In this document: piece by piece, positions 2 to 35,650 of the stretch
Layout: the number at the start of each line of letters is the position of its first letter
Numbering within the stretch: the first letter of the stretch is position 1
Position numbers and translations under genes: made by a program
From: Phycisphaerales bacterium
GTDB taxonomy: Bacteria > Planctomycetota > Phycisphaerae > Phycisphaerales > SM1A02
NCBI GenBank assembly: GCA_022616475.1
Contig: JAKEEP010000056.1
Location: 900 to 64,899 of the forward strand
Length of the DNA: 64,000 nt
Direction of reading: 5' to 3'
Notes under the pieces: generated by a model
Database searches by the model: none
Told to the model about the DNA's origin: nothing
Seen by the model: only the letters and a program-made list of their open reading frames with translations

Positions 2-736
2 CGAACGCCGCTCAATGCGATCATCGGCTTCACGGGCACGCTGCTCATGAGCCTGGCCGGCCCGCTGACGCAGGAGCAAGACAAGCAGCTTCGCACGATT
101 CAATCCAGCGCGCGTCACTTGCTCTCGCTGATCAACGATCTGCTTGATCTGGCGAAGATCGAATCTGGCAAGGTCGATGTGCATCTTGAGCAGGTGGTGT
201 GCCAGACCGTGATCGACGAGGTGGCGGGCTCCATGCGCCCGCTGGCGGAAGGCAAGGGATTGACGATCGAGGTCAAGGCGCCGCGACAGCAGGTGACGGT
301 GACGACCGATCGCCGCGCGCTCAATCAGATTCTTCTGAACCTGACCAACAACGCGATCAAATTCACCGAGAGGGGAAAAGTGGAGATCGAGCTGGATCAA
401 ACGCGAGACGGGGCGGGCAGGCAAGTCCAGATTCACGTGCGCGACACGGGCATCGGCATTCGGGCCGAGGATCAAGCCAAGCTCTTTCAGGCGTTCTCGC
501 AGGTGGATGCCTCGGCGGCGCGCCGGTATGAAGGGTCGGGCCTGGGCCTGCATCTGAGCCAGAAGCTCTCGCACATGCTGGGAGCGCAAATCACCTTTGA
601 GAGCAAGATCGGCGCTGGCAGCGTCTTCACGCTCACTCTGCCTGAACGATCACGCGCTCTTGGAAACGGAGCCACTGACACATGGGCGCCCGAATTCTCG
701 TCATTGAGGATAACCCAGCCAACCTTGACCTCATGA
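2..736 (+). CDS. Sensor histidine kinase, C-terminal part (5' end lies outside the window)
   Basis: The frame is open from base 2. The phospho-acceptor region reads RTPLNAIIGFTGTLL...ARHLLSLINDLLDLAKIESG. It is followed by HATPase_c boxes: N-box LLNLTNNAIKFT, G1 VRDTGIGI, G2 GSGLGLHLS. Confidence 0.9.
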   Translation, partial: RTPLNAIIGFTGTLLMSLAGPLTQEQDKQLRTIQSSARHLLSLINDLLDLAKIESGKVDVHLEQVVCQTVIDEVAGSMRPLAEGKGLTIEVKAPRQQVTVTTDRRALNQILLNLTNNAIKFTERGKVEIELDQTRDGAGRQVQIHVRDTGIGIRAEDQAKLFQAFSQVDASAARRYEGSGLGLHLSQKLSHMLGAQITFESKIGAGSVFTLTLPERSRALGNGATDTWAPEFSSLRITQPTLTS

Positions 737-1494
737 TGTACCTGTTGGCGGCGTTCGGGCATACACCGCTCAGCGCCACCGAAGGATCAGAGGGGCTGGC
801 GGCCGCGGCGGCATTGCTGCCGGACTTGATCATTTGCGATGTTCAGCTGCCCACCATGGACGGATACGAGGTGGCGCGGCAACTGAAGGCGGATGCGGCG
901 CTGCGATCGATCCCACTCATCGCGGTGACGGCATTTGCGATGCCGGGCGACCGGGACAAGGCGATTGCGGCGGGTTTCGACGGATACATTGCCAAGCCAA
1001 TCGCTCCCGATCAATTCATACAGAACTTGGATCACTTCCTTCCTGTCAATAAGCGATCGACGCCGCGCGAATTCGCGCCAACGAGGTCATCGCCGCCTGT
1101 GGTGGCTTCGCGACGGGGAACGATCCTGGTGGTTGACGATTCCAAAATCAATTGCGACCTGATCCGCAGCACGCTGGAGCCGATGGGATACACACTCGTT
1201 GTCGCCAACAGCATTGAGAGCGCGCTGAGCGCCGGGGGTAGCCAGGCGGTTGACATGGTGCTTTCGGATTTGCACATGCCCGATGGCAACGGCGACGAGT
1301 TGATCCGCGTGATCAAATCGGATCCAAAGATGAAAGGCACGCCGGTCGTGATTATCTCATCGACCTCGTCGGGTCACATCGACGCACGGAACATCGCGGC
1401 ACTGGGGGCGGCCGGCTTGATCCTGCGTCCGATTGAGCCTGAGGAATTGCTGAATCAAGTTGAAGCCTGCTTGGCGCAACGTGTTGAGATTTGA
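682..1494 (+). CDS. Response regulator with two receiver (REC) domains and no output domain
   Basis: REC1 reads ILVIEDNPANL...DLIICDVQLPTMDGYEV...IPLIAVTAFAM...YIAKP. REC2 reads ILVVDDSKINCDL...DMVLSDLHMPDGNGDEL...PVVIISS. It overlaps the upstream kinase by 55 nt. Confidence 0.9.
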   Translation: MGARILVIEDNPANLDLMMYLLAAFGHTPLSATEGSEGLAAAAALLPDLIICDVQLPTMDGYEVARQLKADAALRSIPLIAVTAFAMPGDRDKAIAAGFDGYIAKPIAPDQFIQNLDHFLPVNKRSTPREFAPTRSSPPVVASRRGTILVVDDSKINCDLIRSTLEPMGYTLVVANSIESALSAGGSQAVDMVLSDLHMPDGNGDELIRVIKSDPKMKGTPVVIISSTSSGHIDARNIAALGAAGLILRPIEPEELLNQVEACLAQRVEI

Positions 1495-1495
1495 C

Positions 1496-3940: not shown

Positions 3941-4747
3941 ATGGGCCTCGATTTCATTCCGCTGTGGGTCTTCTTCATTGGAACAATCGTCATCATCCTT
4001 CTCTCGTTGGAAGCAGGGTTTCTATTTGGGAGGCGGGTTATCCGGCGTTTCTCCGATGAAAAGGAGTCACCAACCGCTGCGATGGGGGGTGCCGTGCTCG
4101 GCCTGGTCGCATTCTTGCTCGCCTTCACCTTCGGCATCGCCGCCGCGCGGTTCGACACTCGAAAGCAACTGGTGCGCGACGACGCCAATTCGATCCGAAC
4201 CGCGTACCTGAGAGCGGATTTCATGCCTGACCCGGATCGAACCGAATTCAGGCGGGTGCTCAAGGACTATCTCGATCTGCGGATAGACTTCGCACATCCG
4301 AAGGACTTTCAGAAACACCCCGAGGTCATGGCCAAGGTCGCCGACATGCAAGGGCAGCTCTGGGATTATGTGGTTGCACATGGGAGGACGGACCTGGATT
4401 CCGACATAGGCGCCCTCGTGGTTGAGTCTGTGAACGAGATGATCAATGTTCACGCGCTGCGCGTGGCGGTGGCAATCGAAACCCGCATTCCCATGGGAAT
4501 CTGGATGATCATGTATGGGCTTTCGGTTCTTGGCATGGTGGCCATGGGTTACCAGGCGGGAATCGCCGGTTCGAGGCGGTCGCACACGATCATAGTCTTG
4601 GCGGTGTCGTTTGCGCTGGTCATGACGCTGATCGAGGGCTTGGACCGCCCAAATACACCATTGGTTTCGGTGACGCAGCAGCCGCTGATCGATGTTCAAG
4701 GTTGGATCGAAGCGACACAGGGTGGTTCGAGTGGCGAGCATCGTTAA
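3941..4747 (+). CDS. Integral membrane protein of unknown function (DUF4239-like by recollection)
   Basis: Hydrophobic helices occur at the N-terminus (FIPLWVFFIGTIVIILLSL, GGAVLGLVAFLLAFTFGIAAA) and C-terminus (IWMIMYGLSVLGMVAMGY, IIVLAVSFALVMTLI). The start is uncertain: GTG 3896 or ATG 3941. Confidence 0.65.
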   Translation: MGLDFIPLWVFFIGTIVIILLSLEAGFLFGRRVIRRFSDEKESPTAAMGGAVLGLVAFLLAFTFGIAAARFDTRKQLVRDDANSIRTAYLRADFMPDPDRTEFRRVLKDYLDLRIDFAHPKDFQKHPEVMAKVADMQGQLWDYVVAHGRTDLDSDIGALVVESVNEMINVHALRVAVAIETRIPMGIWMIMYGLSVLGMVAMGYQAGIAGSRRSHTIIVLAVSFALVMTLIEGLDRPNTPLVSVTQQPLIDVQGWIEATQGGSSGEHR

Positions 4748-5048
4748 GGGGGGCGACGGAGCTGCGTTTGATTGGGGGGCGGGCCGGGGTTGGGCCAAGA
4801 GGCTGCGGCGACCCAAGAGATATCGGAACCTGGAGCGTGCATTTGGCACGACTCGCGGCTTTGGGCGCCGGGCAAGCAGAACCAGCGTAATTTTGTGTGC
4901 GCTGCGCGCGGACTTTTGTGTAGCGGAGAAGGTGTTTGTGATAGACTGCGAGCTTGGGCGGCCGGCAAGATCTCATGCGCGCGGGTCGGCCGGCGTCTTT
5001 GTCGCAGCGCGCCTGATGTTGGTCATTGAACGCTGGGGCGAACGTCTG

Positions 5049-7046
5049 ATGGGTTCCCCGAACATATTTGAGCCGCCGCTGGAGATTCCGGACGGCTATG
5101 TCGCCATTCCGATCAATTCGGAGGATTTGAGCAGCGCGCCGGTGCGATTGTCGGTGCTGGTGCGGATTGCGCCGGATGATCTTGGCGGACGACTGGTTGT
5201 GCTTCGCGAGACGCTGGATGCGCAAGTATTTCTGGGATGCATTCTGGATGCGGCATCGCAAGCGGTGAAGTGGGTTGAAGTGTGGGTGCAGAATCCGGAT
5301 GGGGTGATTGGGAGCGCGGCGGCATGCCGGGAGGCGCTGTCGAATGCGGCGCTGGACCGCCGGTGGGAGCAGTTTTTCCGGGCGCTGAGCGCGCACGATC
5401 GGAGCGCCGTGGTGACGACGGGTTGGGAGAGCGCTCATCCGGCGCCGGTGGTGTTGGATGTTGGGCGCAAGTGCGCGGTGAAGCTGATGGACCAAGAGTC
5501 GGGCGGGCATTGGGAGTTGTGTCAGGACGATCAGCTTCTGGCGGAGAAAGGTCTGCCGAAGTACGGCGGTTCGCTGGCGCGATACCTGTATGTGGCGCAG
5601 GCCAAGGGGAAGAGCGGGTTCGTGGCGGTGACCGGAGATGCGCCGACGAACGCCGTGACGAAGGCCCTGACCGACGTTGTGCCAAAGGGGAATGCTATTG
5701 GGTTCAATCTCGGCGGGGGTTTGATCCTGGTTCAGCCATTCAGCCCTGTTGGGATCGAGCAGTTCCTGGATATTCTTGGTGGCGGCGCGTGGAGCGGATT
5801 GCAGCATGGGCGCACGGCGATTCAGTGGCGCCAGAAGGATCGTGATGGCGGCGCGGAGCGGTCGGATGGAGTGACCTCGAATGGAAGCCTGTTCCTGGAG
5901 AGACATGGGCGGTCGGGGCGGCTGATCGAGTCGCTGCATTTGAAGCTGAGGTTGATTGCCGATGCGATTTCCGCTGTGCGGGGACTGGTCGCGCGAACGC
6001 AGGCTCCGCTGCTGAATATCACGCCGGAGAGCTTTGCGGTGCGATTGGGCGAGTCGGGGCTGGGGCTGCCGTATTTGTGGACGTCGCGAACGGCCCTGAA
6101 GGACCCTGGCACGGCGATCGCGCTGCCGATTCAGGCGAGCGACGTTCAATATTTCGTGCGCGGTGGTTCATCGGGAGTTTCGATCTATCAGCCGGATTCA
6201 GCGGGCGGAGCAGTGAGCGGGCGCGGGCCGGTGCGAATCCGGCAGGTGATCAACGACACCGGCGGCGGGGTGGTGGTGGAAGGCACGTTGACAACGCACG
6301 AGCGAATCGCGCCGGCGCGGAATGACCTGTTGTGGATTCGGCTGAACCTGGCGGGGCAGCGTGTGGATGTGTATTCGCGATTGGATGTTGATGCGGCGAT
6401 GGCGAGCGGCGAGGTTCGGTTCCGAAGCGTGCCTCTGCGATTCGACGCGGCGCTGGTGAAGAGCTTGCGATCTGCGGAGGGAGTGCCGATTGCCAATGCA
6501 TCGTTTGAGATCATTCCGCTGTTGAGCAGTCCGTGCGATTTGTATTCGCTGGCGGTGCTGGCGGTGCGAGCGCTGTTTGTCAACGGAGAGACCTCGCTGC
6601 CCAAGGCGCTGGACGAGGTTCTGAGCCTGGCGCGGCAGTTGGCTCTGGAGCACGATGAATCAGTGGGCTTGCGGCTGCGGATTCAATCGCTGTTTGACGG
6701 AGACAAGCGTTGGCTGGGCTCACTGGGACCGCATCGGTTGTTGCACGAGTCGGTGAAGCCTGGCGAGGCGTTCGATTTGATTCCGGGTGAATTGTGGTGG
6801 GACACCGTTGGATTGGTGGTGCGCATGTTGCCCGGGGTCGGGCCCGATAGCTTCTGTCTGGACTACAGCGATGCGCAGGCGGGCGGAATTCACAAAGTGT
6901 TTGATGGGGCGCAGCAGGAACTTGAAACGCTGCTGGTGCGCAGCCGCAGTCTGATTGTGATTGACTGGCGATTCAACCGTGAGATTCACAGCGTGATCCG
7001 GCGGCTTGTGGCGGGGATGACGGGCGAGACTGCGGGGAAGGCGTGA
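5049..7046 (+). CDS. Hypothetical cytoplasmic protein (~665 aa), first gene of the T6SS-linked + strand block
   Basis: Long uninterrupted ORF in a high-GC context, co-oriented with and closely followed by the next gene. No signal peptide or TM helix is visible. No motif I can name with confidence. The start (5016 or 5049) is uncertain. Confidence 0.65.
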   Translation: MGSPNIFEPPLEIPDGYVAIPINSEDLSSAPVRLSVLVRIAPDDLGGRLVVLRETLDAQVFLGCILDAASQAVKWVEVWVQNPDGVIGSAAACREALSNAALDRRWEQFFRALSAHDRSAVVTTGWESAHPAPVVLDVGRKCAVKLMDQESGGHWELCQDDQLLAEKGLPKYGGSLARYLYVAQAKGKSGFVAVTGDAPTNAVTKALTDVVPKGNAIGFNLGGGLILVQPFSPVGIEQFLDILGGGAWSGLQHGRTAIQWRQKDRDGGAERSDGVTSNGSLFLERHGRSGRLIESLHLKLRLIADAISAVRGLVARTQAPLLNITPESFAVRLGESGLGLPYLWTSRTALKDPGTAIALPIQASDVQYFVRGGSSGVSIYQPDSAGGAVSGRGPVRIRQVINDTGGGVVVEGTLTTHERIAPARNDLLWIRLNLAGQRVDVYSRLDVDAAMASGEVRFRSVPLRFDAALVKSLRSAEGVPIANASFEIIPLLSSPCDLYSLAVLAVRALFVNGETSLPKALDEVLSLARQLALEHDESVGLRLRIQSLFDGDKRWLGSLGPHRLLHESVKPGEAFDLIPGELWWDTVGLVVRMLPGVGPDSFCLDYSDAQAGGIHKVFDGAQQELETLLVRSRSLIVIDWRFNREIHSVIRRLVAGMTGETAGKA

Positions 7047-7099: not shown

Positions 7100-7636
7100 A
7101 TGAAAGGAACGACAATGCGAAGGGTTTTGTGCGTGGCGACGATGATGGCGGCGATGTCGGTCTTGGGCGGATGCCCGCCGAAGTACGGACCGTATCAAGT
7201 TTCGCTGAATCTTGATCCGGGTCTGAAGGAAAACAACCAATGGCGCTCGGTGGAAGTGGACCTGGTGGGCGTTGGGGATCACGAGCGAGCGCAATGGGAG
7301 AGCAAGTCGATCGACGAATATTTTTCGTCCGGAGATTCGCTGCGGGCGGATGCGAGGGCGAACGGGCAAGCGCACACGCTGAGGTTCTCCAGCGCCGACG
7401 CGGCGAAAACGCTCACACGCAACGACCCGATCTGGAAGAACTGGAAGACCAAGCAGAACATGTTCGTGATCGCGGACTTGAGGTGGTATAGCGATGCCGA
7501 CGATGCCAAGGGACTGCATCGACGGCTGATAGTGCCGATCGACACGAGCCGCTGGGAGAGCGGGCAGGCGATTGAGATTGCGGTTCGCCGAGCGGGCCTG
7601 CAATACAAGACTGAACCCAAGCCGGAGGAAAAGTGA
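7100..7636 (+). CDS. Lipoprotein (~155-aa mature form); possible TssJ-like T6SS outer-membrane lipoprotein
   Basis: The signal peptide has a lipobox: MRRVLCVATMMAAMSVLGGC. Size and position in a T6SS cluster fit TssJ. The mature sequence (VSLNLDPGL...VEVDLVGVGDHERAQWESKSIDEYF) only loosely fits my recollection of the SciN/TssJ pattern. Confidence 0.6.
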   Translation: MKGTTMRRVLCVATMMAAMSVLGGCPPKYGPYQVSLNLDPGLKENNQWRSVEVDLVGVGDHERAQWESKSIDEYFSSGDSLRADARANGQAHTLRFSSADAAKTLTRNDPIWKNWKTKQNMFVIADLRWYSDADDAKGLHRRLIVPIDTSRWESGQAIEIAVRRAGLQYKTEPKPEEK

Positions 7637-7712: not shown

Positions 7713-10700
7713 ATGCCGACCTACGGTGGCTACGAGACGGTTCGCGAGTTGTACAGCGGCGTGCGCGGGTCGTTGTATTCGGCGCGGATGGCGGGCACGC
7801 AGGAGGCGCCGAGCTTTGCCGTAAAAACATTCACACCGGCGTATGGCGGCGGCGGTTGGGCCAGAGGCGAAACGGAACTGTTTCTCGAATCGGCGCGGAT
7901 TCAGAAGCGTCTGGCGGAGACCGAGCCGAACTTCTGGGCTCCGATACTTGAGTTCGGCGCCGAAGGCGAAGCGTTCTATGTGACCAAGTTGTACGCGAGG
8001 TCGGCCCAGGACCTTGTTGGGGGTCGCGTGCGACTGTCCTCGTGGCAGCTGGCCCGGATCGTGGGAGCGGTCATCGCCGGGCTGCGGCACATTCAGCAAG
8101 CCAGCAAGCGGCCGAACGGGAATGTGAAACCTTCCAACGTACTCTTCGGGGGCGGTGATTTGGAGACGTGCGAGATCGTGCTGAGCGATCCGTTGCCGGA
8201 TCGACGGTTGGGCGCGGATCGGTCAGAGGCAGTGGATTTGAAGGCGCTGGGCGGGTTGATCGGCGCGCTGGTGCTGCACCGGGCAGGCGTGGGCGAGGAG
8301 GAGGTCGCCAACAGCTCGCCGGCCGCATGGAAGGGACTGGGGAAGGACAGTGCGGCGTGGCGGGAATTGTGTCTGCGGCTGTTGAGGGCGACGGCGGCGG
8401 AGCCCGGCACAACGCTGGAAGCGGCCGCGGGCGAAGCGGAGCGCCTGGGGCGGAAGCGCAAACAAGCGTGGCCCTGGGTGGCCGGCGGGAGCGCAGCCGC
8501 AGCGGCGGCGGCCATCGCCGTGATCTTGATTTTGAGGATGGAACCGCCGCCGGAGCCGGTAGCCCCAGGGGACCCGACTTGGAGGCGACTGTGCCTGGAG
8601 CACGAGAGTTGGTTCAGAAACCTTCGCAGATCAGAGAATCTGCGGCAATTAGGCGGAGTGGCTGGCGAACTGCAGACCCTGCGGTCGCTCCCGGCGGAAA
8701 AGAAAAGTGATGATCCGCTGAATCCCTACCGCATGGGAGCGGGCGAGGGTTTGACGCGCATTGATGAGCTGGCTGGACTCCAGCTCGACACACGGCTGAT
8801 TCAAAAGGCCACCGGCGCGCTCAAGACGATTGACGCAGTGCGCGCGGAGCTGAAGGGATGGGAAGCGCGTGGCGCGCTGCAAGAACTGCTGGTGGTCGCG
8901 GAGCAGAACAAGCTGGGCGATGCATCCAAGCATCTGGAAGAGCTGCTGGAGCAGAGCGCGCCGCCGGAACGAGAACCTCTGGAAGAAGCCGCGAACATTC
9001 CTGAGCGATTGGTGGGAGAGGCGGCGAGCGAATTGGCGAAGCCGGATGTGGCAGAGATCGCGGCCCTGATTTGGGCGCATCGCGAGGCGGTCAAGGCTTT
9101 GCCGGGGCAGTTTCAGCTTGTTGCGGGATCCGGGGATGCCGTTGCAGCGAGGTTCACTGAATTCGTCTTGAAAGAGGCCGGCGGTGAGGCGACGGCGCAG
9201 CAATTCCTGCAGAAACTCAGTGATCGGCATCCGCTGGGGGAGAAGTTGGCCAAAGCGGTGCAGGACAGATGGCCCAAGGTCGACCAGGCCTACTTCAAGA
9301 AGCACGCCGATGTGTACGGCGAAACCGTGATGGGCGAGGGAACGTTCGCTCGCTGGATCGAGCGCGTGGCGATGAATGACTTCGGCCTGCTGGCTGCGAA
9401 GGACGATCCGAGAAGCGGCTGGAACGGGCCGGAAGAGTTGACCATGGCGAGGCGTGAAGCCTCGGAAGTGGAAGCGTTGAATTCGAAGGATCCGGATCCC
9501 AAGATCGCAGCGGACTTGGCGAGCGCGAACCAGAAGTTGAACGAGTTTGAGGCGCGGATTGCAGAACTCTCTGGATTTGAGTGGAATCGCGAGAACAAAG
9601 ATGTCATCCAAAGCCGGAGCGCCGAACTCCGCAATTCGATGGCCTCGGTCGGCTTGTCGTTGGAACACATGAAGGGGGAGTTGATCGGCGGGTGCGAAGA
9701 GTACATCGCCAGCGCGAAGCGGGAAGGGCGCATCTCGCCATCAGACGCGGTGAACGCTTTTTGGGTGAGAGTTCGCGATGAGCGAATCGCCGGGGCCTCT
9801 ACGTGTCAGAACGCCAGGTCGCAGATCAGGCCGATACGGGAGAAGCTGGTGAAGTTTGAGGAAGAGTTGCCGCGCGGGTTGGCTGCGGCAAAAGCTCCAA
9901 CAACATACGACGCGGAGAAAGGGAACGCGGCGGCTGCGAAGAAGCGAGAGTCCATTATCGCCGCGGCGCTCAGCGCTGAGGGCGCGGCTGAGGGTGACCT
10001 GACGAACCAGGCGAGCATCGCCCGCGAGGAATTTGAACGTTGGCAGCGCGATGCCGCGCGGGTTGTTGAGAGTTTTGCGGCAGTCGAGGATCGCCTTCAG
10101 GAGACGCTGGGTTTTGATCTGAAGGGCGACAAGACGGTGCTTGCGTTGTATGCGGAGGCAAAGGGGGAGCCGTTCAGCGAGCTGGCTGAGTCGCTGGAAT
10201 TGGTGAACCGCCGTCTCAAGGCGATGGAGGACATTCGGGCCGGCCACGACTCCGCGACGCTTCGACAGCACTTGCTTCAAGGAGATGTGCCCACCCGCGT
10301 GGCGGCGTGGATCCAATTAGGCGCCGTGGAGAGCTGGCCGCAGGGATTGGACGACCTGCAACGGGAAACGGAGATGTGGGCAGAGCTGCGCGGCGAGATG
10401 GAGAAAGCGGCCGGCGGCGGCGAACGACGCCGGGCGGTAGCGCAGACGATTGGCAACGAGCTGGCGCGCGAAGCTCCAAAGAGGTGGAATCGATTCTGCC
10501 GTGGGCTGGATTTCAAGAAACTCGATCGGCGAACAGTCAATGCGGCCGGAGCGGCGCTCGACAAGCTGGGCGAGCACAAGGGTGACGCGGAGCCGTCATT
10601 GCGGTATGACTTGTTGCTTTGCGATTTGACGCTGGCGATAGGAACGGAACCAGGGCTCGAAGACGCACAGCTGAAGGCGGTTCTGGCGGGGTTTGACGAC

Positions 10701-11972
10701 AGGGTTCGCCAGTTAGGTGATCGAATCGGCGGTGTTGACGAGGTGAAGCGATTGCTCGCCGGATTGGATGCGGAGATCAAAGACGAGCGGCCAGTGCTCG
10801 ATTTCAAATTGCTGGGACCGGCGCGGACAAGCACGGCGGGAGCGGCGGGTTGGAAATTCGAGCGGGCCAACGGTGAAGAGAATGTGACGTATGCGTGGAC
10901 CAGCGGCTCGGGTCGAAAGCACGAGCTGACATTCGCGCGTGTGGAAGCCCAGAATTCGGCCAGCGGAAGTACATCGTCGAGCTACCTGTGCACGACCGAA
11001 ATGCCGGTTGGGATGGTGATTGACTGGGTTGATGAGCGTGGTGATTGGGCGAGGTTCTACGAGAGCATGAATTCGCCCAACCCCGAAACTGGCGGGTGGA
11101 AGGGGCCGCGCTGTTGGACATGGCGGTATCCCGAAGACTTGAAGCGCGGCTTCACAACCAACGCGCACTGGCTGTGGGACGACATGCTCTGGCCGGCGGG
11201 TCAACAATACCCAGAGGCCTTGAGGGTGCAAGGAGGGGACCGAATGAGCCTCAACCCTGCTTTTGGTGGTGATCCGACACCAAGCCATCCGATTCAGGGG
11301 ATTCCGCTTCAAGCGACGCTCTACTTGGCGTGGTCGCTGGAGTGCCGATTGCCGACGCCTGACGAATGGCGGGCCGCCTGGAAGAGCCAGAGCGAGACCG
11401 GCGCCAAGCCGAATCTGAGAGACCTGACGTGGAAGATGCAGCACGACTATGTCAAGGAGTGCCGAGGGCAAGAAAGGGGAAGGGCGTTGAATAACTGGCC
11501 TGACGATCGCGCCTTTCCAGAGGAAGGCGAGGGTGCTCAGATCGCTGTCAACGCCGATGATCGCACGCTGTGGTTCGACCGAGTCAAGACTCAGGGAGAC
11601 GAGCGCGAAGGCAACACGAGCTTTTTTCACCTGGTGGGAAATGTGGCGGAGTTCGTTTGCGAAGATGTGCAGCTTGTGACCGACCTGAAGCTCGATGAGG
11701 GCGATCCGTTCAAACTGATCAACAATCGATTCAAGGGCAAATGGGACAAGCTTGGGGTGATCGGTGGCTCGGCCCTCACGAGCAAGGATGTCTCGGTGGA
11801 TGCGGTCGATAAGATGCGAACCATTAAGACGTCAACCGGCCTTCCTCCAAGTTCGGGATATTCGGACGTTGGGATGCGGCTGGCGTTCAGCGCGGGACCG
11901 GCGCAGCGGCCGTTGCTGACGCGCGTGCGCAGCCTGCTCGAGAAAGAGGATTGGTACCTGGCAGCGCAATGA
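7713..11972 (+). CDS. Kinase-like (probably pseudokinase) membrane protein with a C-terminal FGE-sulfatase (SUMF1-like) domain
   Basis: The N-terminus is protein-kinase-like: G-loop-like SGVRGSLY, FAVKTF lysine, helix-C FLESARIQ. The catalytic loop reads RPNGNVKPSNVLF where HRDLKPxN is expected. VLSDPLP stands in place of DFG. A single TM helix follows (WPWVAGGSAAAAAAAIAVILIL), then a ~750-aa helical/charged region. The C-terminal FGE-sulfatase motifs are LPTPDEWRAAWK, FHLVGNVAEFVCED, VIGGSAL and SDVGMRLAFS. Confidence 0.8.
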   Translation: MPTYGGYETVRELYSGVRGSLYSARMAGTQEAPSFAVKTFTPAYGGGGWARGETELFLESARIQKRLAETEPNFWAPILEFGAEGEAFYVTKLYARSAQDLVGGRVRLSSWQLARIVGAVIAGLRHIQQASKRPNGNVKPSNVLFGGGDLETCEIVLSDPLPDRRLGADRSEAVDLKALGGLIGALVLHRAGVGEEEVANSSPAAWKGLGKDSAAWRELCLRLLRATAAEPGTTLEAAAGEAERLGRKRKQAWPWVAGGSAAAAAAAIAVILILRMEPPPEPVAPGDPTWRRLCLEHESWFRNLRRSENLRQLGGVAGELQTLRSLPAEKKSDDPLNPYRMGAGEGLTRIDELAGLQLDTRLIQKATGALKTIDAVRAELKGWEARGALQELLVVAEQNKLGDASKHLEELLEQSAPPEREPLEEAANIPERLVGEAASELAKPDVAEIAALIWAHREAVKALPGQFQLVAGSGDAVAARFTEFVLKEAGGEATAQQFLQKLSDRHPLGEKLAKAVQDRWPKVDQAYFKKHADVYGETVMGEGTFARWIERVAMNDFGLLAAKDDPRSGWNGPEELTMARREASEVEALNSKDPDPKIAADLASANQKLNEFEARIAELSGFEWNRENKDVIQSRSAELRNSMASVGLSLEHMKGELIGGCEEYIASAKREGRISPSDAVNAFWVRVRDERIAGASTCQNARSQIRPIREKLVKFEEELPRGLAAAKAPTTYDAEKGNAAAAKKRESIIAAALSAEGAAEGDLTNQASIAREEFERWQRDAARVVESFAAVEDRLQETLGFDLKGDKTVLALYAEAKGEPFSELAESLELVNRRLKAMEDIRAGHDSATLRQHLLQGDVPTRVAAWIQLGAVESWPQGLDDLQRETEMWAELRGEMEKAAGGGERRRAVAQTIGNELAREAPKRWNRFCRGLDFKKLDRRTVNAAGAALDKLGEHKGDAEPSLRYDLLLCDLTLAIGTEPGLEDAQLKAVLAGFDDRVRQLGDRIGGVDEVKRLLAGLDAEIKDERPVLDFKLLGPARTSTAGAAGWKFERANGEENVTYAWTSGSGRKHELTFARVEAQNSASGSTSSSYLCTTEMPVGMVIDWVDERGDWARFYESMNSPNPETGGWKGPRCWTWRYPEDLKRGFTTNAHWLWDDMLWPAGQQYPEALRVQGGDRMSLNPAFGGDPTPSHPIQGIPLQATLYLAWSLECRLPTPDEWRAAWKSQSETGAKPNLRDLTWKMQHDYVKECRGQERGRALNNWPDDRAFPEEGEGAQIAVNADDRTLWFDRVKTQGDEREGNTSFFHLVGNVAEFVCEDVQLVTDLKLDEGDPFKLINNRFKGKWDKLGVIGGSALTSKDVSVDAVDKMRTIKTSTGLPPSSGYSDVGMRLAFSAGPAQRPLLTRVRSLLEKEDWYLAAQ

Positions 11973-12015
11973 AGGGGTCGCCGGGGATCGTTCTGGAGTG
12001 AAGCGATTGGGTTGG

Positions 12016-12294
12016 TTACTCGCCCGGTGCGTTGAGGCGTCCGGCTTCGGTGACTCGGATGCGATGAAGCTCGGCGGATCGGCCGGCCGCATATCCAGCA
12101 AAAAGCTCGTGGCCCAGTGCATCGCCGGCGCCGACTTTGCCGTCGGAAACCTGGACGAATTGAGATTCGGGCTGCCAAAGCGGTTCAGCCGAGGTTGTGG
12201 AATCCTCGACCATCGATTCGAATCGCGTAGAGCATCCGGTGAGGGCGGCGCAGCCCGCCAATCCGAGCAAGCAAGCAACGATGAATCGGCGCAT
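12016..12294 (-). CDS. Small lipoprotein (92 aa), the only minus-strand gene inside the cluster
   Basis: The N-terminus MRRFIVACLLGLAGCAALTGC has lipobox-like LAGC/LTGC. A purine-rich stretch (AGGGG) lies ~7-12 nt upstream of the ATG on the minus strand. The competing + strand ORF 11998..12300 has no such features. Confidence 0.5.
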   Translation of the reverse strand: MRRFIVACLLGLAGCAALTGCSTRFESMVEDSTTSAEPLWQPESQFVQVSDGKVGAGDALGHELFAGYAAGRSAELHRIRVTEAGRLNAPGE

Positions 12295-12598
12295 GATTGA
12301 ACCCCTGAACGAGCTCTATAACTAGAAAGGACACATCCCTAACAAACGCCCGGAAACCATCGATCCAAACCGCCTGATGCTGAAGGCGGAGTTCGAACGC
12401 GGATCGAGGGTCGAGGTTGCCCAACCGGAACAAGTGGATGGGTTGGGTTAAACGGGAGAACGAGCGCACAATGATGGGGCGATCGCTCGCCTTGGCGTGC
12501 GGTTCGAAGCGGTGACGAACGCGTCAAATTGAGAGCATGATCTGTTGATTAGGGGCGCGAGCGTTATAATCGCTCGTTGGGCTCAGTAGTCGACGAAC

Positions 12599-13537
12599 AT
12601 GCTCAACGAAACACAAGCAGCAGCGCCAGCGGGGAGGAAGAAACCGCCGGCAGCGGCGGCGATGGCGGGCCGATTGCGCCTGCTCCAAGCGGAATTGGCG
12701 GATGAAAGTCCCGAGGCGCGGCAACAATTGCTTGCCGATGAGATTGAGCGCGCGCTGCGGGCGATCGCGCCGGATGATCGGCCGGGGTTTTTGAAGAATC
12801 TAGAAGCACTGTTTCCGACCTGGGACGCGCGGGTGGATGTTTCGACTGAAGTGAAGCCGTCGGCGCGCTCCTTGACCGATGAGCGCGAATTGCGCGATCC
12901 AAGCTTTCTGGTTTCGCGGCTGGTTGAAGTTGCAAGCGCGCTTTCAGCGGAGCAGCGTCGGCAAGTGATCAATCGATTGCAGGAAGGGGGGCTGACGCCA
13001 CCGAATCAAGGAGGCTTGCCGAGCGCGGCGACCAAGCTGGTACGCGAGCAATTGAAATTGGGAGATGAGGCGGCGATTCACGCGGCACGGACGATGGAAT
13101 TGACGGCGCTGCTGGCACAGATGGCCGGATTGCTCGATCCGGTGGTGCGCGAAGCGTGGAAGCAAATTGCGCCGCGATCGGCCGTGCGGCGCTCAGGGGA
13201 TTTGAACAAGATCATGGGGAAGTTTGCACTTGGCGACGAGAACGTGCCGCGCGGTCAGGTGCAGCAGGAACTCGAGGTGCTTCGAAGCCTGACGGCGGCG
13301 CTGATCCAGGCGGTGGGCTCGGTGGGCAAACAGTTCGCGCAAGGGTTCCGGAAGTACGCGCCGACGGAAATCGAGGGGCTGGCTCGGATTGAAAAGAAGT
13401 TCACCGAATCCCTCGATGCGGCGTGCTGGCGAAAATTCAAGGAGCTGGCGAGCGATCTGGATGAGGCAACGATTGAGTCAACGATTCGGCAGTTAATTGC
13501 GACATATGCCGAGAGCTGTTTGGGACACCGTCGATGA
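12599..13537 (+). CDS. Hypothetical helical cytoplasmic protein (312 aa) immediately upstream of tssK
   Basis: The ORF ends 23 nt before tssK on the same strand. The sequence is rich in Ala/Leu/Glu/Arg and has no TM helix or signal peptide. No FHA signature (GR...SRxH...NG) is visible. Confidence 0.65.
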   Translation: MLNETQAAAPAGRKKPPAAAAMAGRLRLLQAELADESPEARQQLLADEIERALRAIAPDDRPGFLKNLEALFPTWDARVDVSTEVKPSARSLTDERELRDPSFLVSRLVEVASALSAEQRRQVINRLQEGGLTPPNQGGLPSAATKLVREQLKLGDEAAIHAARTMELTALLAQMAGLLDPVVREAWKQIAPRSAVRRSGDLNKIMGKFALGDENVPRGQVQQELEVLRSLTAALIQAVGSVGKQFAQGFRKYAPTEIEGLARIEKKFTESLDAACWRKFKELASDLDEATIESTIRQLIATYAESCLGHRR

Positions 13538-13560: not shown

Positions 13561-14934
13561 ATGGCGATACCGGAACAGATTCATTGGCACGAGGGCTTGT
13601 TTCTTCAGCCGCATCATTTGCAGTTGATGCAGCATCAGTTGCATTTGTTGCATGAGGAGCAGCGGCGGGTGGGATGGGGATATCCCTACGGCCTCATCGA
13701 GGCAAAGCTCTCAGCGGATCGGCTGGAGAACATGGTGGTTGGGTTTGATCGACTGCACCTGGTGATGCCAAACGGCGTGGAAGTGGATGTGCCGGGCAAT
13801 GCCGACCTGCCGACGCTGGACATCAAGCACGCGTTGACGGCCAGCAGCGGATCACTGATGGTCTATGTTGGAGTTCCACGGTGGTCGGCGGACCGGGCGA
13901 ACACGATCGAGAGCGATGACAATTGGCGCGAGCGGCGGCTGTATCGGGTGAAGAAGGTGGACCGTCCGGATGAGAACACCGGGCAGAACCTGCAGCCGGT
14001 GATGGTGCGGCGGATCAACGCGCGGCTGCTGCTTGAGAACGATGATCAGACAGACTTGGAAGTCATGCCTCTGCTGAAGATCGGGTACGCCACTGGGGAG
14101 AAGGTGAGCTTGCCGAAGCAGGATCCCTCGTTCATTCCGCCGTGCCTGGTGTTGTCGGGCTCGCCGACGCTGCGTGAGCTGGTGCGCGACTTGGCGAATC
14201 AGGTTGAAGCGAGCCGCTCCGAGCAGCGGATCAAGCTGACCAGCGGCGGCTTTAGTCTGGAGACGATGCGGGGCGTGCAGTTTTCGCAGATGCTGCGATT
14301 GCGCACATTGAGCCGTTACGGAGCGCGACTGGCGAGCGTGTGGCAGGTTCCGGCAGCAACGCCATTCCAGATTTATTTGGAGTTGAGAGAGTTGCTGGCC
14401 GAGCTTTCGGCTTTGGCGCCGGATCGCGATCAATACGAAGTGTCGAAATACGATCACGACAATCCGGGCGTGGCGTTTTATGAGTTGAACAAGAAGATCA
14501 GACCGCTGCTGAAGCCCGAAGGCCGGGCGACGTGGCTGAAGCTCGATTTCAAGCTCAATGGAAAGGTGCTGGCGGCGGAACTCAGCGAAGATCATCTCTC
14601 CAAGCCCAACGAGTACTTCCTGGCGATCAAGACCGGGCAGGATCCGCGGCAACTGGCGCGCCTGGTCGAGGACAAGGATCAGTTCAAGCTGATGCCACTG
14701 AGCTTGGCGGGCAAGAAGATCTACGGCGTGAGGCTGGTGGAGGAGCGTCATCCGCCGCTGGAGTTGCCGGCACAAATCGGCTTGAACTATTTCAGATTGT
14801 CGCGTGCCGACAGCGATCGAATTTGGGACCGTGTGAAGTCGGAGAAGAAGCTTTCGCTGGAGTGGCCGAACCTCGAGGGCTCGGATTTCCGGGACAACGT
14901 GGCGCTGTACATGACGGTGGCTGATGGGAGTTGA
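13561..14934 (+). CDS. tssK: T6SS baseplate protein TssK
   Basis: The N-terminus IHWHEGLFLQPHHLQLMQ matches the characteristic TssK opening (W-x-EG-x-FL-x-PQHFQ). Size is ~450 aa. It is followed by tssL and tssM with overlapping stop/start codons. Confidence 0.9.
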   Translation: MAIPEQIHWHEGLFLQPHHLQLMQHQLHLLHEEQRRVGWGYPYGLIEAKLSADRLENMVVGFDRLHLVMPNGVEVDVPGNADLPTLDIKHALTASSGSLMVYVGVPRWSADRANTIESDDNWRERRLYRVKKVDRPDENTGQNLQPVMVRRINARLLLENDDQTDLEVMPLLKIGYATGEKVSLPKQDPSFIPPCLVLSGSPTLRELVRDLANQVEASRSEQRIKLTSGGFSLETMRGVQFSQMLRLRTLSRYGARLASVWQVPAATPFQIYLELRELLAELSALAPDRDQYEVSKYDHDNPGVAFYELNKKIRPLLKPEGRATWLKLDFKLNGKVLAAELSEDHLSKPNEYFLAIKTGQDPRQLARLVEDKDQFKLMPLSLAGKKIYGVRLVEERHPPLELPAQIGLNYFRLSRADSDRIWDRVKSEKKLSLEWPNLEGSDFRDNVALYMTVADGS

Positions 14935-15656
14935 TGATGACGCTGCTTGAGCTTTGCGAGCCGCTGTTTCAGACAGTGTGTCGCTTGAACCGGTCGGGGC
15001 GCAAGGGGCTGAACCCGAATTTCCACGATGAGCGTGCAAAGATCAACGCGCTGTTGTCGGACATGAAGGCGCGGGCGCAAAGCACGCCGGGAGTGGCCGA
15101 CCAGTATGAGAAGGTGGAGCTGGCGCTGATCTTCTTTGTTGATTCAATGATCGCCGAGAGCAAGCTTGGTTTTGCGTCGGAATGGAACGCCGAGAGACTG
15201 GCGGAGAATCTGCACCCGCCGCAACTGGGAGGCGATGAGCGATTCTTTGATCTGTTGGATGAAGCGCTGGCGGACCGGAGCCATGGGGCAAGCGAGCGGC
15301 TGCAGGTTTTCTACACGTGCCTGGGGCTGGGATTTACGGGTTTCTATGCGGGACAGCCGGAATACCTGCGGCGGAAGATGAACGAGATTTCCTCGCGGCT
15401 CAAAGGGGTGAGCGAGTCGGAGTTGGCGAGCCGCATCTGCCCCGAGACCTATGAGCACATCAACACGGCTGACCTGGTAGAGCCGCCTGGAGTCAGGCTG
15501 GCGGGGTGGGCGATTGCAGTCGCCGCATTGATTGTGATCGTGTTCGCGGCGAACTTCACGCTGTTTCGAACCACGCGCAATGACCTGAAGGATTCGTTGG
15601 AGGAGATTACCCGGAAGGGCAACCCAAGCGCGTTGGCGGGGGAGGTCCAGCCATGA
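14934..15656 (+). CDS. tssL: T6SS membrane-complex protein TssL (DotU family)
   Basis: Cytoplasmic DotU-like domain (LALIFFVDSMIAES, FYTCLGLGFTGFYAG) with a single C-terminal TM helix (WAIAVAALIVIVFAANFTLF). The start overlaps the tssK stop. The stop overlaps the tssM start (ATGA). Confidence 0.85.
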   Translation: MMTLLELCEPLFQTVCRLNRSGRKGLNPNFHDERAKINALLSDMKARAQSTPGVADQYEKVELALIFFVDSMIAESKLGFASEWNAERLAENLHPPQLGGDERFFDLLDEALADRSHGASERLQVFYTCLGLGFTGFYAGQPEYLRRKMNEISSRLKGVSESELASRICPETYEHINTADLVEPPGVRLAGWAIAVAALIVIVFAANFTLFRTTRNDLKDSLEEITRKGNPSALAGEVQP

Positions 15657-18600
15657 CCGGGTTGCTCTCATCGTTTTTCAATCTGCCCAAGCCGCTGCAG
15701 GCGGCTTCGAGCTTGGCGGCGGGCGGGAGCGTGGTGGCGGTGGTGTTGTTGGCCATGGGCGGATACACGATCGTGGCGGCAGTCATCCTGATCGGTTTCG
15801 CGGTTCTGGCCGGTCTGTTGTTGCTCTATCGATCGATTCTGAAATGGCGACAGAAGGTGAAGGCGGCACCGTTCGTGCGGGAAATCGCCGAAAGCACCTC
15901 TGCGGTTCCGCAAGGGGCCGGCGGAGCGGCCGCCCGAGCCAGCATGGATGACATGCGCAAGAAGTTCGAGTCGGGCATGGCGACGTTTCGAACGCACGGC
16001 AAGAACATCTACGCGTTGCCGTGGTACGTGTTTGTCGGCGAGCCGGGGTCGGGCAAAACCGAAGCGATCAGGCACTGCAATATCGGTTTCCCGCCTGGTT
16101 TGCAAAACGAGCTTCAGGGCACCGGCGGAACCATCAACATGGATTGGTGGTTCACCAATCACGCGGTCATTCTGGACACGGCCGGGAAAATGGTGATGGC
16201 CGATGTGGACAGCCCGGCTACGAGCCTATGGACCGAGTTCCTCAAGCTGCTGGCGCGGCACCGCCCAAATTGCCCGATCAACGGACTGCTGCTGGCGATC
16301 TCGGCGGAGAGCCTGATCAACGACACGGCGGAGGCGATCGAGAAAAAGGGCGGAAAGCTGGCGCGGCAACTGGACCACATTCAGCGAGCGCTGGGCGTGC
16401 GATTCCCCGTTTTCGTGGTCATCACCAAGTCCGACAAGATCAACGGCTTCCGGGATTTCTTTGATGACATCGGCGATCCGCAGATGCAACACCAGATCTT
16501 TGGCTGGTCGAATCCGGCGCCGCTCGATGAGGAATTCAAGCCGGATCAAGTCGAGCGATGCTTGCAGGAGATTCGCACGCGTCTGGTTCGAAGGCGCCTG
16601 GCCTTGCTGCGCGATCCGATACACAGCGAGGACGAAGGCGGCCGGCGGATCGACCAGATTGACTCGATGTACGATTTCCCGAACGAGATCGTGAATCAAT
16701 TGGCGCCGCGCCTGCGGCGGTATTTGGAAATGATCTTTGTCGCCGGAACATGGGCGACCAAGCCCTTGTTCCTGCGCGGGATTTACTTCACATCGGCGAT
16801 GCGCGAAGGCGAGGAGCTCGACAAAGCGCTGGCGAACTTGTACGGCGTGGCGGTGGAGGCGCTCCCTGGCGGCCGCGCCTGGTCGCGCGACAAGGCGTAT
16901 TTCCTTCGCGACCTGTTCCTGAACAAAGTCTTCCGCGAGAAGGGCTTGGTGACGCGCGCCGGGAACACAAAGAAGCTGCAACAACGGCGCCGGCAGGCGC
17001 TGCTGGCAACGGCATGCGGCGGATTGCTCCTGGTCGGGGCGTTGACGTTATGGGGCGTCTTCGCGCTCAGCAAGAGCGTGGTCGAGCCCGGGCGGTTTTG
17101 GGGATCGGTTTCGAAGGCCATGGAGCCCAAGCACCAGCGCAAGATTCTGGCGCGGGTTGACGACATTCTGGTCTATGGCGGGGATGATCGAATCGAGGAG
17201 AAAGGCGAGCCGATCATTGTGGGAGAGCCGGCAACGCTGGCTGGAGCCGTGGCCAGAGTGCACGAGCGAGCGGCGGAGAACATCAAAGTTCATCCGATTT
17301 TCTATCCCGCGAATTTTGCATCGCGCCAGTTGCTGGATAGCGAGAGGCACGCCGCTGCGGAGGCGTTCTTCAGCGCGAACGTCCTGCAACCGTTGGTTGA
17401 GGAAACGCGCCAGGGCTTGCACAAGCAGAAGCAATGGGGCGATCGCGATGCTGAGGTCCAGGCGCTGACAGAACTCGTGCGGATGGAGGTGGCGGCGGAG
17501 GTGGAGGGGCCGCAGGAGCAGCCGATGGCCCTTGGACCGCTGCTTGCCTACGCGCTGCGACCTACCGAAAGCGATGGAGGAACCGGCGGCGAGGCGGCCG
17601 CTGCCGATGGGGAGTCAAGTGATGTCATCGAGCGCGACAAGGCGCTTGGCGACGCCGAGAGCCTGCAGAAAACGATGAACTGGTTGTATGGCTCGGCCGA
17701 GGACCAGCTGAGCCTGCCCTGGCCGCCCAGCGACCTAGGCGCGGGCACCAAAGACGCGCGTGATGGCATCACCAGGGCGATCGAGTCGTTCAAGACGCAT
17801 GCGCAGAGCCGATACGGCGGTGGCGTTCACGGGGACGTGCAACGGCTGGTTGAACAGCTTTCGAGATTCGCTGAGATTGAGCGCGGGCTCCATGCGATGT
17901 CGGGCCAGTTTGAGACGGGCAATGCGGATGCACTGGTGCGGGAGTGGAACGAAAAGCTGGCGGCGCTTCAGGCTGCAGCCAAGGAGATTGAAAGCAACAC
18001 GGCGAACCTGGGATCGTCGACCCTGACAGACTTGAACAATCAGTTGCTGAAGCGAGACAAGGCCATTCTGGATGGACAACTCCAGAACCTTCGCACGGCG
18101 CTCAAACCGCTGAATATTCCGGCCGATGACGCCGGTTCGGCCAAGTCGAAGCATGAACCGGTTGACCCGTTCTTTGTGACGGTGCATCGCAGCATCGGAG
18201 AGATTCAGGCGTTCAGTCCGAGCGCGGTCCAGCAGGAGGAAATCGCGCGCCGGCTCAGGGAATTCGATCAGATTTACCTGGCGCGGGCGGAGGAACCGAG
18301 CAAGCGGCGGCTGTTTGAGATCCGCAATCACATGTACCGCCTGGCTGACGATGAGATCAAACGAGCGGCCAGTTCCGGCGAAACCAAGGATCTCAAGGCC
18401 GAAATAGAGCGATTTGTGCGGGCAGGCGCTGCGGCGATGGACGGCATCCGAGGGGACGCCGCGGCGCTGACTCCGCTGGCGCTCAGGGAACCGGCGACAG
18501 CGGTCTCGACGGGTGCGGCGGCGCTGGCGTCACGACTGGCCACTCAGAATCTGGCGCACTCGTTCTTGAGCTCGCTCCCCGAACGCGCGACTGAATTGGC

Positions 18601-20209
18601 GCAGATGATCAAGGATCAATCGGACGCCGCCAGTTTTCCGGCTGGGAATGACGCCGGTCCGCGAAACGAGTTGCCTGAGATTCCGTTGACGGCGCTGGCG
18701 CACAATCCAGCCAAGCGGCAACTCGATGCGGCCTACATTCAGGGAGCCGAGTCGAGTTTTCTCGAATCGTGGAAGACGCTCACAGGGTTGCTGAAGCCGG
18801 TCGCACCGCCGGCGCCGGAGCCGCTGCTGGATCGGGCGGCCTTGAAAAGCGCGTACGACGGCAAGGCGAGCGCTGTCAACCAGTACATCGACGACTACGT
18901 GAATTATTGGGCTGTCGAGGTTCGCAACCGCAGCGCGATCGATTTTGGAAGCGCGACCAAATGGGAAGGGGAGCCGGGCTCGGCCGGGATCCGCGATCAA
19001 CTGAAGACGGTCAAGATTTCCGACACCAACAAGAATCTGAAGCTTGTCGCCGAGCGCACACGCGACGCGCTGGAGCGAGTCGACCAGGCCGCCCTCAATG
19101 AGGCGGCGAGGAAGACGTTGGAGCAGATTCGCTGTGAAATCAGGACGCTGACCGATTCGGGCTTCGAAAAAGGGTGCAACACCGCCCTGGACCATTGGAG
19201 AAGCCTGAATTCGTTTGAACAGGCGAAAGGAACGCTGTTGCGCAGCATGAATCTGGACAACACCTTTTTTGAGGTGTATCAGGATGAGTGCACATCTCAA
19301 ACCGGCGCGGTGAGATACTGGAGCGATCTGGGGTTGAAGTCGCTTGAAATGCTCGCCAATGAGGGCAGCGCATCGACGTTGGACGCCAAGAAGAAGTTGA
19401 CGGCCCAAGCCAGCCAGAAGTTCCCGCTTTGCTTCAGCCATTCGGAGTTGTCGGAGGCGGAGTTCACCGACGCCCAGAGGTGGTTCCAAGCGATCGACGC
19501 GGCTGCGGCTGGAAAGGCAGGGGCTGATACCGACAAGACCCAGTGGAAGCTGGTGAACGAACAACTTCGGCGCCTTGCCGGCGTGGGTTTGTTCGATCAG
19601 CCGACACGCGACTGGATCCTGAAAACGAAGCCGATCTTCGAATTGTTTGAGAAGCCCAAGGGCGAGGGCTTCACTTGCAGCCTGGTCGTGGTCTCCGACG
19701 ACAGCCTGCAACGAGCAACGCCGGCCCGGCTTTACCTCGACGACGAAGCGGGGCGCAATGAGGCGGTTGCGGCGGTGGGGCGATTCGGATTCTTCAAGGT
19801 GAAGATCGGGGATGCCGAGACAGCCGACGCGATCAAGACCAGCGGAGGCGACCCGCTGAAGATTCAACAGCTGAAGCAAGACAGGTTCAAGCTACGGCTG
19901 CCGCAGGACCAGGAGGTGACGTTCACGTTCTACGAAGAAGCGCCTTCGCCCGGCAAGCCGCCGGCCGTTCGAGCCGTGGCAACTCTTCCAAAGCCCTGGA
20001 CCGGCCTGGGGGCGCTTCGGCTGACCAACGACCAATATGAGGGCGACGGTGAGAAGCGAGTCTGGCGGGCGCCGCTCCGAGTTGTCGTAGAGGAAGGGCC
20101 AGGCAAGGGGGAAACCTACTTCTACTGGATCGGCCTGCAGTTCAATCGCGATGTTCCCAAACAGGACGCCTGGCCACAGGCCAAGGACTGGGTTGGCTTG
20201 AGCCGCTGA
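15653..20209 (+). CDS. tssM: T6SS membrane-complex protein TssM (IcmF family), unusually long at 1,518 aa
   Basis: Two N-terminal TM helices are followed by [22 protein letters not shown] (Walker A), [15 protein letters not shown] and a third TM helix ([23 protein letters not shown]). A ~1,050-aa predicted periplasmic region follows. Confidence 0.9.
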   Translation: [1518 protein letters not shown]

Positions 20210-23730: not shown

Positions 23731-23803
23731 TTGGTTGGTGGTTGGTTTAACATCGCTCTAAAAGCCTGCAAAATGCGGGTCAACCGGGGAATTTGGAGGT
23801 CTC

Positions 23804-31439: not shown

Positions 31440-31443
31440 GCGC

Positions 31444-34057: not shown

Positions 34058-34061
34058 CCCA

Positions 34062-35558: not shown

Positions 35559-35650
35559 GCGCGGGTTCAACCGCGCCAGACACGCCAATCCCAAATGGAT
35601 TGCGCGCGTCTGGCGCGGCGAATCCGGGCGCCGGAGGGAACGGTTGTGTC

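Follow-up and report, generated by a model that had tools for sequence, protein, structure and literature searches.

Nearly all understanding of how the firing of type VI secretion systems (T6SSs) is controlled post-translationally comes from one circuit, PpkA-PppA-Fha-TagF, in a few Proteobacteria. In this circuit PpkA is activated from the periplasm by TagR, which is recruited by the outer-membrane lipoprotein TagQ. TagR (PA0071) is described as an 'FGE-sulfatase domain-containing protein' (PMC7253367, PMC13411936) and is assigned to COG1262 (PMC13584744). The FGE-sulfatase family PF03781 also occurs in fusions with Ser/Thr kinases, and a cysteine-less FGE-like T6SS immunity protein (Tsi3) is known (bioRxiv 10.1101/2021.05.21.445229). 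In the type VIIb system, the membrane pseudokinase YukC/EssB is the central scaffold (bioRxiv 10.1101/2020.05.09.085852). Here we describe a gene in a 64,000-nt stretch of a contig from a metagenome-assembled genome (MAG) of a Phycisphaerales bacterium (hereafter the window, to which all coordinates and strands refer). The window holds a complete T6SS locus, with all core T6SS genes present according to Pfam. The gene encodes a 1419-amino-acid protein, identical to a database 'hypothetical protein' of a Phycisphaerales MAG, in which a kinase fold and an FGE-sulfatase-like domain are joined by a transmembrane (TM) helix and a long stalk. We put at about one in two the probability that this protein is an inner-membrane adaptor of a T6SS variant of Planctomycetota and Verrucomicrobiota, that is, a phosphorylation-independent, PpkA/TagR-like scaffold that works by binding rather than by catalysis.

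An earlier annotation of the gene, made from the letters of the DNA alone (hereafter the sequence-only reading), had proposed a single-chain PpkA-TagR-type sensor with kinase-fold landmarks at its N-terminus, and its placing of TagR among the FGE-sulfatase-domain proteins agrees with the literature. The landmarks lie where they were said to lie, namely SGVRGSLY at residues 15–22, FAVK at 35–38 (with Lys38), Glu59, NGNVKPSN at 135–142 and SDPLP at 158–162; the C-terminal motifs it quoted, LPTPDEWRAAWK, GNVAEFVCED and GMRLAFS, were also located. Neither Pfam nor NCBIfam gave any match to the protein, whole or in three pieces, even at E ≤ 10, so both end domains are invisible to library models and are seen only through family profiles and structure. 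The profile of residues 1–252 matches Hanks kinases in the PDB (StkP, PknA, PknB and PknI; E 1e-7 to 1e-4, best 1.3e-7), with RPHGNLKPSNVL standing over VHRDLKPQNIL. The AlphaFold2 (AF2) model of the same domain is confident (predicted local distance difference test, pLDDT, 90.7; pTM 0.88), and Foldseek returned ~2000 kinase matches to it, the best being PknS of Xanthomonas citri (E 1.6e-9, TM-score 0.65). With hhalign, the domain was further aligned over 223 columns with two Ser/Thr kinases of proteobacterial T6SS loci (94.8% probability, E 5.5e-8). Residues 1–252 thus have a Hanks-kinase fold by profile and by structure, beyond the motifs. The Pfam Pkinase model (PF00069) does not match the window protein at E ≤ 10 and matches two of ten homologues at E 0.076.

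Residue conservation was counted in the best 150 family representatives and in 47 sequences taken from genomic loci. The HRD Asp position, occupied by Asn137 in the window protein, holds Asn in 128 representatives, Ala in 7, Asp in 4 and other residues in 11; the Asp is therefore lost in 146 of 150, and none of the 47 locus sequences has it. The sequence-only reading was right in this substitution, since NGNVKPSN aligns over HRDLKPxN both in the profile and in the hhalign comparison with the T6SS kinases. An intact catalytic Asp in a shifted register was considered and rejected, as no Asp stands five residues before Asn142 in any register. The catalytic-loop Asn (Asn142) is itself kept in 146 of 150 representatives, and the His two residues before the HRD Asp position is conserved, the window protein being the sole one of the 150 with Asn there. 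The claim that DFG is replaced by SDPLP stood in part: DFG is absent, but it is not simply replaced, for Asp159 is kept in 143 and Pro160 in 148 of the 150. The equivalence of SDPLP with DFG rests on position, its hhalign alignment being inexact. The Gly-rich loop (GxGxxG) is degenerate, with variable positions across all 150 and 47 sequences. From Asp159 to the conserved helix-F Asp (Asp175), just 16 residues are counted in the alignment and in the AF2 model. Canonical kinases have ~36 residues between the DFG Asp and the helix-F Asp; with a spacing of 16, the protein is left without an activation loop, a P+1 loop and APE.

With Asn in place of the base, no Gly-rich loop and a deleted activation/P+1 segment, canonical phosphate transfer by the N-terminal domain is predicted to be impossible, as the sequence-only reading had suspected in calling the kinase moiety probably inactive. 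The conservation of Lys38, Asn142 and Asp159-Pro160 is what a pseudokinase that binds nucleotide or metal would show, and not what a decayed domain would. That the base and the substrate platform are gone while the ligands of nucleotide and metal persist points to a maintained and possibly nucleotide-binding domain without catalysis, and almost every family member examined would by its residues be a pseudokinase. The same conserved ATP- and metal-binding residues, together with the Asp at the HRD position of 4 of 150 members, would also suit an atypical but active kinase that uses another residue as base and phosphorylates a T6SS component as PpkA does. That explanation is highly improbable given the missing Asp in all other members counted, the absent GxGxxG loop, the activation/P+1 segment cut to 16 residues, the failure to reach the Pfam Pkinase threshold, and the absence of an FHA reader and a PP2C eraser from the window and from the related loci that were looked up.

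The kinase fold is followed by one TM helix, as had been noted from the letters, at a position that is hydrophobic in all 10 homologues. Since RKRK lies on its N-terminal side and there is no signal peptide, the kinase fold is predicted to be cytoplasmic and the remainder of the protein periplasmic. The charged stretch of ~750 amino acids noticed earlier corresponds to the stalk, which is 31% charged and rich in Ala, Leu, Glu and Arg, and which would favour helix as estimated from its composition. Pfam gave no match within the stalk of the window protein, and self-BLAST of the protein found no internal repeat. Across the family, homologues are 1373–2573 amino acids long and differ by duplicated stalk modules; nine of them (1373–2100 amino acids) align with the window protein end to end. 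MPxYGGYET opens every homologue in the alignment, which makes the start codon of the gene secure.

That the C-terminus is FGE-sulfatase-like, as first read, is carried by the family profile. The profile of residues 1040–1419 matches solved FGE structures in two stretches (E 4.4e-11). The Pfam check suggested earlier showed neither end domain in the window protein itself; PF03781 was found in nine of ten homologues (best 3.8e-15) and in 18 of another 21 relatives. AF2 modelled this domain poorly (pLDDT 59), and for that reason the best Foldseek matches of the model, EgtB and FGE, count for little. At the FGE active site the family has GGSALSPPE in place of GGSYLCHDSYC: the first Cys becomes Ser, Ala or Thr, the second falls in a gap, and neither Cys is present in any of 114 members. 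A catalytic FGE enzyme was accordingly rejected, the Cys pair that binds copper in FGE being absent; the window contains no catalytic FGE either. By its sequence the C-terminal domain belongs to the FGE-sulfatase superfamily and is predicted to be catalytically dead, a loss additional to that foreseen for the kinase moiety.

An exhaustive HMMER search of 1.84 billion representatives yielded 726 family proteins at E ≤ 1e-30, with the kinase-like domain always at residues 1–250. Among the best 150 representatives, 113 are at least 1200 amino acids long and 111 of these have the FGE-like end; a search with the FGE-domain profile gave mostly fragments and was uninformative on kinase fusions. In GTDB species genomes there are 241 confirmed family stretches, and the best 80 of them are almost all from Planctomycetota (Phycisphaerae, Tepidisphaeraceae, Planctomycetaceae and Pirellulales), together with two Opitutales (Verrucomicrobiota). 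Of 50 family copies placed in their genomic context, 39 adjoin tssK/L/M or a gene for a protein of ~310 amino acids, 4 have too little flanking sequence and 7 are orphans, so that tss-adjoining copies make up 39 of 46 assessable loci. Five contigs looked up directly all have the family gene next to a gene of the 312-amino-acid type or tssK/L/M. The full module runs in the order 665-amino-acid protein gene, lipoprotein gene, pseudokinase gene, ~310-amino-acid protein gene, tssK, tssL, tssM and TagF-like gene, often followed by a shlB-like gene and a giant gene with a two-partner secretion (TPS) domain; in some loci the first two genes or tssK are absent. This is a conserved T6SS-associated gene family, annotated as hypothetical everywhere and linked to core tss genes across taxa, and its T6SS link is much stronger than a single window could show. 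Our reading of the literature turned up no account of a pseudokinase in a T6SS or of planctomycetal T6SS architecture, in keeping with the statement of the sequence-only reading that it knew of no described example.

The gene order also bears on whether the protein has anything to do with T6SS function. It might instead be an envelope protein of another kind, such as a relic of a kinase-FGE receptor, a sulfatase-maturation enzyme or an FGE-like immunity protein. Kinase-FGE fusions and the immunity protein Tsi3 are known, seven copies are orphans, and a sulfatase gene (PF00884, 51594–53456 on the minus strand, E 2e-58) lies just past the T6SS locus. We consider this explanation very unlikely. 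The slot between the lipoprotein gene and the TagH-like and tssK genes persists from Phycisphaerae and Planctomycetia to Opitutales at 25–40% identity, the catalytic Cys pair is absent, and the gene is not adjacent to vgrG or effector genes. An immunity protein in particular was rejected for its wrong position and size.

Table 1. Coordinates in the window of the pseudokinase-FGE gene, its parts and the neighbouring genes of the module (ORF, open reading frame).
Feature	Coordinates	Strand	Basis or remark
Whole gene, 1419-amino-acid pseudokinase / TM / stalk / FGE-like protein	7713..11972	+	ORF, ATG start
Kinase-fold domain, predicted cytoplasmic, residues 1–252, shortened activation segment	7713..8468	+	Profile, AF2, Foldseek, hhalign
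Lys38, equivalent of the strand-3 (VAIK) lysine	7824..7826	+	Lys in 143/150 family members
NGNVKPSN, catalytic-loop equivalent, residues 135–142	8115..8138	+	Aligned on HRDLKPxN (profile, hhalign)
SDPLP, residues 158–162, with Asp159-Pro160 at the DFG position	8184..8198	+	Follows strand 154–157 of the AF2 model
Single TM helix, ~residues 256–275, N-terminus predicted inside	8478..8537	+	Hydropathy peak 2.32
Predicted periplasmic stalk, residues 281–1040 (~760 amino acids), of variable length across the family	8553..10832	+	Composition
FGE-sulfatase-like domain, predicted non-catalytic, residues 1044–1418	10842..11966	+	Family profile, PF03781 in homologues
GGSALTSKDV, where FGE has GGSYLCHDSYC	11763..11792	+	Profile alignment
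Conserved protein of ~665 amino acids, function unassigned	5049..7046 (ORF 4692–7046, start uncertain)	+	phmmer
Lipoprotein, signal peptide ...SVLGGC	7100..7636 (start uncertain, 7100 or 7115; ORF from 7043)	+	Sequence
TagH/Fha-like protein of 312 amino acids without FHA domain	12599..13537	+	Precedes tssK, the tagH position
tssK (13561–14934), tssL/dotU (14931–15656), tssM (15653–20209)	13561..20209	+	Pfam T6SS_VasE 1.9e-62, DotU 8.7e-29, IcmF-related_N 2.3e-54
TagF-like protein of 348 amino acids	20247..21293	+	Directly after tssM, as tagF

Downstream of the pseudokinase gene, the 312-amino-acid protein has no Pfam match of its own. PF20232 (T6SS_FHA_C) is matched by 13 of its 27 homologues (best E 2.6e-4), always in the last ~70 residues, and hhalign of its family against six annotated TagH proteins gave a probability of 87.5% (E 3.6e-6), in the C-terminal domain only; against a single TagH the comparison was not significant. 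No FHA domain was found in 38 relatives, all of ~300 amino acids, in a profile search that returned same-length family members only. The product would thus be TagH-like rather than a full TagH. For the 348-amino-acid protein that follows tssM, PF09867 (TagF_N) is matched weakly by 11 of 28 homologues (best E 0.007), hhalign against TagF is not significant (E 0.033), and a PDB profile search found no match; an invariant GK.P...D and S.D..GR are spaced as in real TagF. Proteobacterial loci run tagH-tssK-tssL-tssM-tagF, in one case followed by PP2C and kinase genes, and the order of the TagH-like gene, tssK, tssL, tssM and TagF-like gene in the window equals theirs. No Pkinase, FHA or PP2C Pfam domain occurs among the ORFs of the window, and neither PP2C nor an FHA reader was found in the related loci that were looked up. 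The earlier statement that no FHA or PP2C partner is visible is therefore true for the domains, but partners of the TagH-like and TagF-like kind are present. The gap of 627 bp between the pseudokinase gene and the TagH-like gene (11973–12598), which corresponds to ~150–220 bp in three homologous loci, holds only an ORF of 100 amino acids without a Pfam match.

On the upstream side, a lipoprotein gene directly precedes the pseudokinase gene in 24 loci. The lipoprotein has no Pfam or PDB match; our guess is that it is a divergent TssJ or a TagQ-like candidate partner of the FGE-like head, and a guess it stays because its profile finds nothing in the PDB. The gene for the 665-amino-acid protein is the most conserved of the module (phmmer E down to 2e-224) and was found in 20 loci, always upstream of the lipoprotein gene; its product matches nothing in Pfam, NCBIfam or the PDB. 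Three of the seven orphan copies of the pseudokinase gene still stand after this pair of genes.

In 11 other loci (L013, L019, L021, L027, L041, L044, L051, L066, L068, L077 and L080 of our set), there are proteins of 1200–1850 amino acids in which a TagF-like domain stands before a single TM helix, a stalk and the FGE-like domain described here (E 1e-73 to 1e-97). The TM-stalk-FGE module thus occurs on PpkA-like or on TagF-like domains, as an input unit serving the cytoplasmic regulators of the T6SS would. The earlier idea of PpkA and TagR fused in one chain holds inasmuch as the two domain families are joined and the gene is tied to T6SS loci; a literal gene fusion was not shown, as kinase-FGE fusions are known and the same module occurs on TagF-like domains. 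A kinase-FGE receptor that already existed, was recruited and then lost catalysis is as possible an origin as a fusion of PpkA and TagR genes.

In the adaptor model, the periplasmic FGE-like head would bind an envelope partner; on the model of TagQ and TagR, the lipoprotein encoded next to it is the first candidate. Binding or clustering of the head would be relayed through the stalk and the TM helix to the pseudokinase, which would bring the TagH-like protein to the TssK/L/M complex or let go of it there, with the TagF-like protein as its competitor. In place of phosphorylation by PpkA and phosphothreonine recognition by FHA, the switch would be made by direct contacts between proteins, and nucleotide binding may gate it. 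Overall, the interpretation offered by the sequence-only reading is partly supported, and the sensor or signalling role it assigned to the protein would follow from homology and gene order.

The main rival is a protein that carries no signal and is a structural core subunit of a remodelled complex that spans the envelope: its FGE-like heads would make up a layer close to the outer membrane, like PorK/GldK, the stalk would span the periplasm and the pseudokinase would dock to the baseplate like YukC/EssB. The gene is present in nearly every locus seen, including all five loci that were reached via the TagF-FGE paralogue and have a visible upstream region. TssM, of 1518 amino acids, is recognised at its N-terminus only (TIGR03348 positions 31–452 of 1168), so that its periplasmic part, which normally binds TssJ, is unrecognisable, and no Pfam TssJ was found in the window. 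Stalk length changes by whole modules, the C-terminal domain has weak profile matches to PorK/GldK (E ~1), and YukC provides a precedent (bioRxiv 10.1101/2020.05.09.085852). Against such a strut stand the conserved Lys38, Asn142 and Asp159, which are hard to explain for a purely structural part, the homology of the neighbouring genes to the regulators TagH and TagF, and the candidate TssJ lipoprotein upstream; the PorK similarity, moreover, is not significant. We hold a purely structural role to be less likely than the adaptor, though well ahead of the active-kinase and unrelated-envelope explanations.

Several points weigh against the adaptor model. Every interaction in it is inferred, and near-universal presence of the gene would suit a regulator no better than a core structural part. 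The loci were sampled through the family gene itself rather than via all T6SS loci of Planctomycetota and Verrucomicrobiota (PVC), and the seven orphan copies lie away from tssK/L/M. The TagH link of the 312-amino-acid protein spans ~100 residues only, and the TagF assignment is statistically weak, as the E-values given above indicate. The likeness to TagR would be one of shared family, predicted periplasmic location and an adjacent lipoprotein gene. The four representatives with an Asp at the HRD position have it as HGD, and, as the Pkinase scan covered the window, a kinase acting in trans may be encoded elsewhere in the genome.

The most economical reading of the locus is a threonine phosphorylation pathway made of scaffolds only, with a PpkA-like pseudokinase bearing a TagR-like head, a TagH-like protein without FHA, a TagF-like protein and no phosphatase. 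A bolder version, to which we give tentative and less than even credence, is that the T6SSs of Planctomycetota and Verrucomicrobiota retain this pathway complete but 'de-phosphorylated': PpkA would have become a pseudokinase with a TagR-type head, Fha would have lost its FHA domain, TagF would be kept and the phosphatase gone, with ligand-driven switching in which activator and repressor read the same periplasmic cue. At least ~700 sequence clusters would then keep the protein parts of the PpkA-PppA-Fha-TagF circuit with its chemistry lost. If true, nature would here offer a test of the share that scaffolding, as opposed to phosphorylation, has in signalling by kinase, FHA and TagF. It would also suggest a general role for TagR-type FGE domains as envelope input modules, and give a first handle on how T6SSs are built and controlled in Planctomycetes, which have an unusual envelope and in which parts of TssM and TssJ are unrecognisable.

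The remainder of the window contains further T6SS genes, namely tssA, tssB, two tssC, tagJ/impE, tssE, tssF, tssG, clpV, hcp and vgrG. A gene for a ShlB/FhaC-like transporter and one for a 2426-amino-acid TPS-domain protein (21691–31084) lie inside the T6SS locus, and many related loci (e.g. L006, L043–L045, L068 and L077) have the two again behind the TagF-like gene; it is unusual for a T6SS locus to include a two-partner secretion pair as a fixed component. Just before tssA there is a sigma-70 family gene (31252–32190; 312 amino acids, regions 2 and 4). The two tssC (VipB) genes stand in tandem (34032–35558 and 35477–37252), both complete by Pfam, and an Azospirillum plasmid locus (L089) likewise has two tssC. 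Upstream of the T6SS module, positions 47–3697 encode a histidine kinase fragment, a double-receiver response regulator and a hybrid receiver-GAF-histidine kinase. Beyond the T6SS locus a tRNA gene (53700–53771, minus strand) is found; an Rfam scan gave one tRNA and nothing else, and promoter and terminator scans gave results at chance level.

Among described systems, fusions of PF00069 with PF03781 have the same two families in the same order with a TM helix between them. They are annotated as kinases, with an intact HRD presumed, and we know of no link between them and T6SSs. The window protein differs in failing both Pfam models, in its long stalk and in its strict T6SS synteny. YukC/EssB, likened here by description only, also combines a cytoplasmic pseudokinase at its N-terminus with a single TM helix and an extracytoplasmic domain, but it belongs to another secretion system and another phylum and has another outer domain. 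PorK/GldK of the type IX system and Tsi3 resemble the C-terminal domain as FGE folds without catalytic cysteines that serve as binding or structural modules of the envelope. PorK is a lipoprotein ring subunit whose profile similarity to the family is just E ~1, whereas Tsi3 is a small immunity protein of the periplasm whose gene adjoins that of its effector, unlike the pseudokinase-FGE protein. In HER3-type pseudokinases, too, Asn takes the place of the catalytic Asp, with the Lys, the Asn and the DFG Asp retained, a pattern that goes with nucleotide binding without efficient transfer; these belong to a eukaryotic family of receptor tyrosine kinases and have a complete activation loop, and the analogy is one of residue pattern only.

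The closest system is the H1-T6SS of P. aeruginosa. Like PpkA (TagE), the window protein is predicted to be a membrane protein with an N-terminal cytoplasmic Hanks fold, and it is encoded beside tssK/L/M and a TagF-like gene. PpkA has its own, different periplasmic domain, and it lacks the losses described here of the catalytic Asp, the Gly-rich loop and the activation segment. As in TagR, an FGE-sulfatase-family domain is predicted to lie in the periplasm, a likeness of shared family, and as with TagQ there is a lipoprotein gene, here adjacent. Unlike PpkA and TagR, the kinase fold and the FGE-like domain stand in one chain, linked by the ~760-amino-acid stalk. The TagH-like protein is without an FHA domain and neither PppA nor TagS/T was identified, in contrast to the H1-T6SS threonine phosphorylation pathway, with which the locus nevertheless shares TagH/Fha-like and TagF-like genes in the same order.

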